A stretch of DNA of 64,000 nt from Octopus vulgaris (Eukaryota), in the NCBI GenBank assembly GCA_951406725.2, contig OX597816.1, positions 90,210,001 to 90,274,000 on the forward strand, given 5' to 3'. Below, in pieces: positions 145 through 49,519 of the stretch. How positions within the stretch are numbered: the first letter of the stretch is position 1; each line of letters opens with the position of its first letter. The notes below the pieces were generated by a model. The model worked only from the letters and a program-made list of their open reading frames with translations. It was not told the DNA's origin and did not search any database. Both the position numbers and the translations under genes were made by a program.

Positions 145-39373
<39,229 letters not shown>

Positions 39374-47852: not shown

Positions 47853-48622
47853 AAGAGTGTAAAAGTAATGTTACAATAAATGTTACTGAATAATATGTCT
47901 TATTGATGCAGACCAACATCAGTTTTTTAGAGCCTGATCAAATATATTTATCACTTTGATCCTTGAGTTTAACACTACGTCATCAAAGAAACTACTAAAT
48001 AGTGACTGTTGTCAATTCTTTTTTTTTTTTCACGTATAACTTTCAAGGACATTGTTTTTCATTTTGTTTTCTTTTTTGTGTGTGGTGATGGTGATGGTCA
48101 TATAGAGAGAATGTTAGTAAAGGGTCACTACTTTAGTGAAAGGGTTGATAGAGAGGTCCTGTATGTGAGCTTTTGAGAAGGGTGTGTAATGAAAATATCA
48201 GAGGCATTTTTAAACAAACTATTTTAATTTATTAAAGGGTAACAAGAGCTGACAAGTAATATGAGCGTAGCTGGTGTATGTGTATGAGTCAGAGAAAGCT
48301 TTATAACTTACATTTGAAAAATGGATTCAGTTGTAAGTCGTTATAAGCCAACAGAAATGGAGCTAGTATAAATGAAAATGCACTGCTTGTGATATGGCCA
48401 GTGAACTCGTTTTTGCATTAATATGCATCTAGCCCTCTTGGCTGGCGTTGCCATAGCACAAGTGATAATAAAAATAGCTTTCCTTGACTTGCTACAGTCA
48501 CTATGACCTAGCATTTTCTATATTGATCATTTTATGGAAATATCAAAATAATATCTTGGTAACAACTTCAGTTAAAGAAATAATTTTATGTTTACTTACA
48601 AAACTAAAAAAGATTTTCATAC

Positions 48623-49022
48623 AGTTCTATATTTAAGAGATGAGGGATTATGTACATTATTTACATTATTTACATTTGACGGATATTTGTCCTCATCTTG
48701 TTTGTTGTTAACACAATGTTTTGGCTGATATACCCTCCAGCCTTCACCAGGTGTCTTGGGGAAATTCGAACCTGGGTTCTTATTCCTAAGATATTTTTCA
48801 ATGTTGTTGTTATTATCATCATCATTATTATCATCATCATCATCATCATCATCATCATTATTATTATTCAGGTCACTGCCTGGAATCAAACTTAGAATCT
48901 TGTGGTTAGTAGCCCACGCTCTTAACTACTATGCCATATGCCTGTGCTCATGGGCATATGGTGTAGTGCTTAAGAGCACAGGCTACTAACCCCAAGATTC
49001 CGAGTTCAATTCCGGGCAGTGA

Positions 49023-49061
<39 letters not shown>

Positions 49062-49209
49062 CAATATCGAAAAATATCTTAGAAATGAGAACCCAGGTTC
49101 GAAATTTCCCCAAGACACCTGGTGAAGGCTGGAGGGTATATCAGCCAAAACGTTGTGTTAACAACAAACAAGATGGGGACAAATATCCGTTAAATGTAAA
49201 TAATGTAAA
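48623..49209. mobile_element. Palindromic element: two head-to-head tRNA-headed units with Penelope-type hammerhead-like tails, 14-bp TSD
   Basis: Inverted arms 48660-48945 and 48950-49209; AAAGATTTTCATAC at 48609-48622 and 49207-49220. Confidence 0.85.
49114..49159 (+). ncRNA. Minimal type I hammerhead-like motif, core-mutated (mirror copy at 48710-48755, minus strand)
   Basis: GACAC-CUGGUGA-A-GGCUG-(10 nt)-CAGCC-AAAA-CGUU-GUGUU: helix I, helix II and the ACGU mini-palindrome are intact; core differs from CUGAUGA/GAAA at two positions. Confidence 0.55.
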
Positions 49210-49519
49210 GATTTTCATACTTAACTTTTTTAGACATACTGTACAGATACTTAATAATTTGTTGACTATTGTGTGGTAACCAAGATAGAAAGTTATCAAA
49301 CTGTAAGCAACTTATTTACTTATGTGGTAATTATAACTAATATATTATGGAACTTTTCTTGAGGGACGAACAATAATCAGTTATAATAATTAAAAGCTGA
49401 TAGCTCTACATGGCGATAACTACAGTGTAAAGCCTAAAACCTTTAAAGGTTTGATGAAAGCATATCAGAACAGTTAACAAATGTTGTTGGCTCATGTAAA
49501 TTCCATTTCATTTGTTTAG

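Follow-up and report, generated by a model that had tools for sequence, protein, structure and literature searches.

The two arms of the inverted repeat at positions 48609 to 49220 of the window, by which we mean the whole analyzed stretch of 64,000 nucleotides of Octopus vulgaris DNA, are each, by sequence comparison, a copy of the whole pseudo-LTR (pLTR) of a now-decayed Penelope/Poseidon-type retrotransposon, tRNA-like head included. The pair was inserted with a target-site duplication (TSD), the family has two fixed 3' ends, one per arm, and its 5' ends cluster at the head. The head-to-head pair was probably made by an RT/endonuclease that copied a short, probably Pol III-started RNA from both nicked strands of the target. 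Transcription would begin roughly at -6 to +1 relative to the head and read through to the first TTTT in the flank. The protein would cut the two strands about 12-14 nt apart, with one nick priming at the tail end and the other about 34 nt upstream, and each cDNA would head toward the RNA 5' end before the two were joined head to head. The palindrome would then be a by-product of one insertion event and not the mobile unit, and the short copies would be SINE-like in behavior while deriving from the end-repeat of the autonomous element itself.

The palindrome, the 14-bp TSD, the tRNA-like heads, and the hammerhead motifs, all of them claimed in an earlier sequence-only reading of this DNA, are confirmed as real features. 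The inverted arms cover 48623-49209 and pair in three blocks with complementarities of 97%, 86%, and 82%. Flanking them is an exact direct repeat, AAAGATTTTCATAC, at 48609..48622 and 49207..49220, with two occurrences in the whole window and a chance of about 3e-6 of standing at both ends; its right copy includes the TTTT at 49212, the first to occur downstream of the right head. The TSD supports the claim that the structure was inserted as one unit. Read outward, each arm passes from the tRNA-like head through an (AAT/GAT)n tract and a hammerhead-like motif to AAATAATGT repeats, and the left arm has a 3' extension; its excess length consists of the roughly 34-nt Penelope tail at the outer end plus a tract that is 27 nt longer. 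On the minus strand, the left arm comprises the head (48869..48942, with an A box at 48926-48936 and a B box at 48882-48893, both damaged), the tract (48803..48868), the hammerhead (48710..48755), and the tail (48623..48653), which is the long 3' end and also N-terminal coding sequence of the autonomous ORF. On the plus strand, the right arm comprises the head (48952..49026, A box 48959-48969, B box 49002-49013), an (AAT)n tract (49027..49064), and the hammerhead (49114..49159), the last lying within what reads as the first 41 or so codons of the Penelope ORF (49085..49209, likely start ATG at 49085), which finish at the short 3' end. Between the heads is the junction (48943..48951), of which 48946-48951 is a decayed version of the 6 nt preceding the head in the autonomous element, as judged by comparison with its linker. 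No read joint across the insertion, as an empty-site allele would give, was found, and the left and right junctions are spanned by single contigs in two runs. We found no further pieces of the same element elsewhere in the window. The window copy is old, its ribozymes are broken, and nothing suggests a function for this single copy. A 1.5-kb truncated ORF-bearing copy of the same Penelope-like element (PLE) family, with an inverted 3'-end piece, lies about 6.7 kb beyond the window end (L313:3037-4697). Within the window, about 8 kb at 22001-30000 have low GC and a strong G-over-C skew (0.27-0.63) and are probably a simple-repeat array.

The arm was identified as a pLTR because the head follows the stop codon and linker of an autonomous ORF and the tail leads in frame into the N-terminus of that ORF. 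At locus L048, a GIY-YIG-like endonuclease C-terminus ends 33 nt before a head. A search with the L048 coding piece and the 29-nt linker as queries returned 60 loci, and among the matches listed the linker led to the head or its first bases in 46 of 46; 50 of the 57 non-redundant loci selected by ORF or linker align to both head and tail. On the opposite side, L286 shows the tail leading in frame into the N-terminus of the ORF, and in 26 of 30 loci the N-terminus follows directly on the tail. Four loci are partial tandems reading ORF end-linker-head-tail-ORF, the arrangement that marks a pLTR. As reconstructed, the pLTR consists of head, tract, hammerhead, and tail, and the ORF starts inside it.

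Upstream of the head lie RT and endonuclease frames, the RT matching PF00078 with E=1.2e-9. The element's protein is 40% identical over 264 aa and 29% identical over 157 aa to an 836-aa protein of Anolis carolinensis, and its C-terminus matches the endonuclease region of that protein with a pairwise E=2e-23; the Pfam GIY-YIG model matched neither the C-terminal fragment nor the Anolis protein. The nearest named matches are proteins of echinoderm and lizard origin, at about 40% identity. A single ORF with an RT plus a GIY-YIG-type endonuclease at its C-terminus places the element among the EN+ PLEs, and all ORF copies seen are broken. Translations inspected by eye and the ungapped Anolis alignment contain no extra Zn-finger-like linker before the endonuclease, a feature given as setting Neptune/Nematis apart from Penelope/Poseidon (PMC8557442). 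The proposed link to Penelope elements is therefore supported. The tail does match the pLTR of an autonomous Penelope, as had been suggested, but so does the whole arm with its head, and so no tail was borrowed.

Stand-alone and ORF-attached repeats have the same consensus and diverge alike from it (0.048-0.055), no position is specific to either group, and the window's two variants occur together in 2 of 100 listed copies. These observations give no sign of a separate SINE subfamily and do not support the claim of a separate SINE with a borrowed tail. ORF-bearing copies also have the same inverted 3'-end pieces. With a tRNA-related head bearing A and B boxes and with 5' ends at that head, the short copies resemble SINE2 elements; the head is shared with the autonomous partner, and the copies have no subfamily positions that would point to source genes of their own. 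Because the head is common to the partner and there is no lineage apart from it, we do not file the family as a SINE, SINE-like as it is in its likely promoter and in its use of a protein made elsewhere.

Three other candidates were rejected. The 781-aa GIY-YIG family, the most abundant in the genome, cannot be the partner since the tail is present in 0 of 30 of its loci. RLE-type LINEs upstream of tails lie within the (AAT)n tract and are later insertions. An animal non-LTR retrozyme would consist of units arranged head to tail, each with a hammerhead, whereas the units here are head to head or single, and tandem short units are rare (L033, L040, and L043 of 90 loci). We also saw that in 12 of 90 hammerhead-selected loci the pLTR tract contains LINE-like 3' ends, which come from at least four families that we take to be Dong/R4-like, several of them having a restriction-like endonuclease at the C-terminus (tract insertions were seen at L050, L059, L181, L182, L185, L191, L192, L198, L215, L223, L224, L231, L021, L026, L027, and L111); the (AAT)n tract is a target for AAT-seeking LINEs. 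The 781-aa family (L305-L308, L065-L090) is young, with intact frames in many copies, and its 3' region holds tandem units of about 90 bp rich in GATTGG and TGACGT, presumably CCAAT/CRE-like motifs, as well as an unrelated hammerhead-like motif in L072. These units suggest a Pol II promoter. Lastly, the three loci L162-L164 are near-identical and lie within ORF-bearing insertions of head-to-head form (L294:4578-4670, L295) that stand about 100 kb to 1 Mb from one another, a layout that suggests local duplication.

The heads are tRNA-like by sequence. Scored with a profile built from 10 genomic tRNA genes, 32 heads reach 7.0-26.5 bits, with 14.5 and 16.2 bits for the window's left and right heads, and the best of 960 shuffles reaches 5.5. 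In contrast, neither ARAGORN, run on the window, nor the Rfam tRNA model, run on the heads, returned a tRNA, and the cloverleaf is broken (head fold z +1.4). As such, the tRNA-like head holds at the level of sequence and not of these two programs. A-box-like and B-box-like segments are in place in both arms as claimed, but the B box spelling originally quoted occurs only in the right arm; the left-arm B box is AAGTTTGATTCC, and the left-arm A box ends in AG. The B-box spelling of the head also occurs in genomic tRNA genes, and the nearest tRNA differs by copy (Arg, Ala) within the compared set of 30 tRNA loci of few isotypes. In all ORF-attached copies, L098:1893-1935 among them, the linker that separates stop codon from head is similar to the first 20 or so nt of the head in reverse complement; an earlier inverted insertion that delivered the head may have left it behind.

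The family is large. In the AT-rich, 2.8-Gb host genome, one arm used as query gave 4,476 first-look candidates, and exact patterns gave 1,427 matches for a hammerhead 36-mer, 2,448 for a head 30-mer with CpG degeneracy, 4,372 for a tail-start 29-mer, and 429 for the 29-nt linker, with 0 matches for reversed control patterns. Taken with the divergence of about 5%, these counts lead to a rough estimate of ten thousand insertions. The family hammerhead, derived from 61-62 copies selected independently of the motif, reads CTGA(T/A)GA-A-GGCTG...CAGCC-GAAAC-GTT, and the consensus CTGATGA..CCGAAACGTT that the sequence-only reading had said to look for is indeed present, being the 36-mer counted above. 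Each invariant core base is kept in 75-98% of those copies, the lowest being G12 (46 of 61), which is a CpG site. Helix I (GACAC/GTGTT) and a 6-bp helix II are both predicted to fold. CUGANGA and GAAA, an extra base 9/10.1, G10.1-C11.1, and a palindromic 15.2-16.2 are all present in the family core, the latter three as described for the minimal type I hammerheads of PLEs (PMC4209133). The window copy has lost this core: both arms read CTGGTGA and CC-AAAAC in place of CTGA(T/A)GA and CC-GAAAC, that is, A6G and G12A, and the left arm has a further G to A change in helix III. Both window hammerheads are therefore predicted to be inactive, on what we take to be the established chemistry of hammerheads. 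The Rfam hammerhead models did not match the arms, and nothing in Rfam scored above chance in the window. In L029, both arms share three private changes, two of them within the hammerhead core, the clearest single case of a common template or of conversion.

To describe how copies are built, we took 90 loci from the 1,427 matches to the hammerhead, namely the 30 at the top of the listing and 60 of the 70 that follow, all on one contig. Leaving out 13 with another element in the tract and 4 that run past the reference, 73 were assessable. An inverted piece adjoins the copy in 52 of these 73, and a TSD score of at least 8, mostly reflecting duplications of 12-16 bp, was obtained in 26, as opposed to 0.5 for shuffled flank pairs. 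In only 6 of the 73 do both arms have their start in the first 7 nt of the head, so that the window copy belongs to a tidy minority. Junctions differ from copy to copy and arms are truncated independently, which speaks against movement as a fold-back dimer. Divergent promoters would not rescue that idea, since each outward-facing internal promoter would transcribe one arm and not the palindrome. Microhomology was dropped as a rule for the arm junctions because overlap exceeded zero at just 8 of 49.

The two 3' ends, about 34 nt apart, are seen both at loci and as loose read ends, and 45 of 50 two-arm loci pair one long end with one short end (P=5e-10 under independent ends). For the arm that lacks the tail the 3' end is fixed, falling at 127-151 in 45 of 50 loci and at 139 or 145 in 30 of them. 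In 23 of 45 loci this arm extends further 5' than the one with the tail, with the reverse in 16 and equality in 6, although later deletions could account for some of the cases in which the short arm is longer. This one-long-one-short pairing and the independent truncation are a better fit to priming on both strands of the DNA than to a fold-back dimer that moves. In the Poseidon_Ac (PAc) element of the green anole, both strands are extended and RT starts at two sites bounding the tail (PMC11167929). The fixed short end, its further 5' reach, and the PAc result together suggest one priming event per strand, one per site; a point against this is that no strand difference in start site was seen with PAc (PMC11167929). 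Private changes common to both arms are few (10 observed versus 5.2 +/- 2.3 expected in 56 unbiased pairs, or 20 versus 6.8 with similarity-selected loci added), and so one RNA template and two are indistinguishable.

The 5'-most point reached by either arm, classed by eye in the 90 loci, lies at the head start (-8..+5) in 32, upstream in 9, inside the head in 19, and in the tract or tail in 17, with 13 set aside. Thus 32 of the 41 copies that reach +5 stop within 14 nt, where the rate inside the head would lead one to expect 3.0 (P=9e-29, or P=5e-22 after moving four borderline loci). A head-selected sample gave a similar picture, with 25 of 30 loci not running on into the linker; of the five that do, three duplicate one another almost exactly, and this sample has five loci in common with the first. 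The exact counts of 429 for the linker versus 2,448 for the head point the same way. Many 5' ends include 2-6 nt upstream of +1, and starting 8-13 nt ahead of the A box is in keeping with Pol III. Because most short copies start at the tRNA-like head, Pol III likely made the RNA that was copied, and transcription from the head is likely. Extension beyond the head start is commoner among near-full-length copies than among short ones (5 of 8 versus 9 of 41, p=0.03), as expected with a separate short RNA, but a more processive RT would give the same result. The 5 of 8 near-full-length copies extending upstream of the head mean that part of the template RNAs had another start or derived from tandem arrays.

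Further signs of Pol III were sought in its terminator. In the 2,573-nt body at a depth of at least 19, no TTTT is common to the majority of copies while 13 TTT sites are shared, giving p of about 0.035 in a test that rests on one ancestral sequence; GGGG is likewise absent from shared sites. Pooled open stretches, from copies that are non-independent, hold 9 TTTT as opposed to 22 +/- 3.8 in synonymous shuffles. For comparison, the 781-aa family has 8-9 TTTT per ORF, and nine fragments of other PLE families hold 20 in 5.5 kb, two of the fragments holding none. As a sign of Pol III, the lack of TTTT in the body is no more than suggestive, and one would have to explain how a Pol III RNA is translated. 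The earlier claim of Pol III-driven movement is probably right, given the 5' pile-up and the TTTT lack. In three raw RNA-seq runs, family sequence occurs equally on both strands, 66-71% of reads run into other sequence, and there is no pile-up of starts or ends, including read ends at the hammerhead that would indicate self-cleavage, a pattern that weighs neither way on Pol III; the sequence index listed no RNA record with family sequence. The A-to-I editing signature that the sequence-only reading had raised is absent, with no excess of sense-strand A>G (14.3 per 1000) over T>C (16.8 per 1000).

A pile-up of 5' ends need not mean a promoter. One unlikely but credible explanation is ordinary 5' truncation without Pol III, in which a longer read-through or Pol II RNA is copied, RT stalls or turns at a hairpin formed by the linker and the first 17 or so nt of the head, and the boxes are relics of an old SINE. 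Such a hairpin over the start is predicted (-12.5 kcal/mol, z -1.65), 11 of the 19 stops inside the head fall at +7..+17, its 3' base (P=3e-5), and this excess means that structure plays some part. Many palindrome centers lie on the GCCC-AC-GGGC loop, palindromes at pLTR 5' ends have been published and read as self-priming (PMC3846280), and the RNA-seq runs show no RNA start. Yet most stops are at or beyond the loop (the 32 at -8..+5) and not at the 3' base of the stem (11), about 13 of the 32 head-start copies have no inverted head alongside, passage of the site is more frequent in long copies than in short, the stability of the hairpin is ordinary (11 of 200 shuffles fold as well), and the lack of TTTT is left unexplained. 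Alternatively, the short RNA could be real with a 5' end that results from processing, in which a nuclease, RNase P-like or otherwise, cuts a long Penelope transcript at the head. This would account for the 5' ends without a new promoter and would make use of the head's tRNA likeness, but we regard it as improbable given the broken cloverleaf, the lack of an Rfam match, and the many ends 2-6 nt upstream of +1, where RNase P cuts at +1. Tentatively, one might go further than our preferred account and take the tRNA-type head as a Pol III promoter for the whole Penelope, with a 2.6-kb body purged of TTTT, 3' repeats throwing off SINE-like copies, and each subunit of a Penelope dimer priming one strand at its own start site; a SINE would then be seen arising from the very element that is its autonomous partner. 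We think this extension unlikely.

The inversion alone could be explained differently, by the second arm being made through self-priming (snap-back) on a single strand. This is the published reading of head-to-head palindromes in rotifer Penelope elements (PMC3846280), and palindromic centers are present in about 18 of our loci. We find it rather doubtful here, as the end of the tail-less arm is fixed and not random, as most junctions are not palindromic, and as a short arm that so often reaches further 5' than its tailed partner is not a snap-back copy of it. Least probable of all, and largely refuted, is an independent tRNA SINE with a borrowed Penelope tail that spreads as a fold-back dimer with divergent promoters. 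Short copies do outnumber ORF-attached ones about five to one, the inverted piece is frequent, and arms share slightly more private changes than chance. Against this stand a head that is part of the autonomous pLTR, the equal divergence of the two groups with no diagnostic subfamily, the rarity of full symmetry, and ORF-bearing copies with the same inverted ends. Two-strand copying of a short RNA started at the head thus continues to be the account we prefer.

If that account is true, a Penelope with a tRNA-type head in its own end-repeat would make a third class of retroelement mobile through Pol III and would offer one route to SINE-like families. In published descriptions SINEs are paired with LINEs, and autonomous elements are expected to use Pol II (PMC10886601). 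The family, with its 45 of 50 coupling, is also a large natural data set on how Penelope inverted ends originate. On a practical level, its roughly estimated ten thousand insertions could be mislabeled as SINEs.

The layout is already known: inverted copies, one-sided tails, and TSDs are recorded features of PLEs (PMC8557442, PMC3846280), and inverted ends with a one-sided tail of about 34 nt and TSDs are the published Penelope footprint. What departs from it is the tRNA-type head inside the pLTR of an autonomous element, with 5' ends piling up there. We found no PLE with a tRNA-derived head in its pLTR in the open literature, although subscription papers, Repbase, Dfam, and the consensus files of other supplements may hold the family; the PMC13282606 supplement makes no mention of pLTR, hammerhead, or polymerase III. 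PAc is similar in having an RT with a C-terminal GIY-YIG-type endonuclease, an ORF start inside the pLTR beside the hammerhead, a 30-40-nt tail with an RT start site on either side of it, partial tandems, and AT-rich targets (PMC11167929). It differs in that no tRNA-like head is mentioned in the accessible text, while our family has 5' ends that cluster at such a head and is made up mostly of short copies with the pLTR alone. The Pen2a, Pen2, and Pen3a elements of Adineta vaga differ in having a pLTR with a putative TATA/Inr promoter and an inversion explained by self-priming; for the Pen elements the one-long-one-short coupling is described, uncounted in the part of the source available (PMC3846280), and it is counted here. 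The hammerhead is the same in kind as the minimal hammerheads of metazoan PLEs (PMC4209133), the window's two copies having lost core bases.

Outside these elements, the SINE-like schistosome repeats Sm-alpha and Sj-alpha are likewise short and tRNA-related, with hammerheads in Sm-alpha (PMC2770079), and animal retrozymes are non-autonomous hammerhead repeats argued to derive from PLE pLTRs (PMC7761336; bioRxiv 10.64898/2026.07.22.740005). Retrozymes form head-to-tail tandems that are processed to circles, whereas our family is dispersed, head to head, and identical to the autonomous pLTR. A further parallel is found in the TRIMp3 elements (Cassandra, Helenus, Ajax), which carry a small-RNA-derived Pol III promoter in the terminal repeat, thought to derive from an inserted SINE (PMC10886601). 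Those are non-autonomous LTR elements whose autonomous partners are expected to use Pol II and not to share the repeat (PMC10886601); in the octopus family, in contrast, it is the autonomous non-LTR element itself that bears the head.
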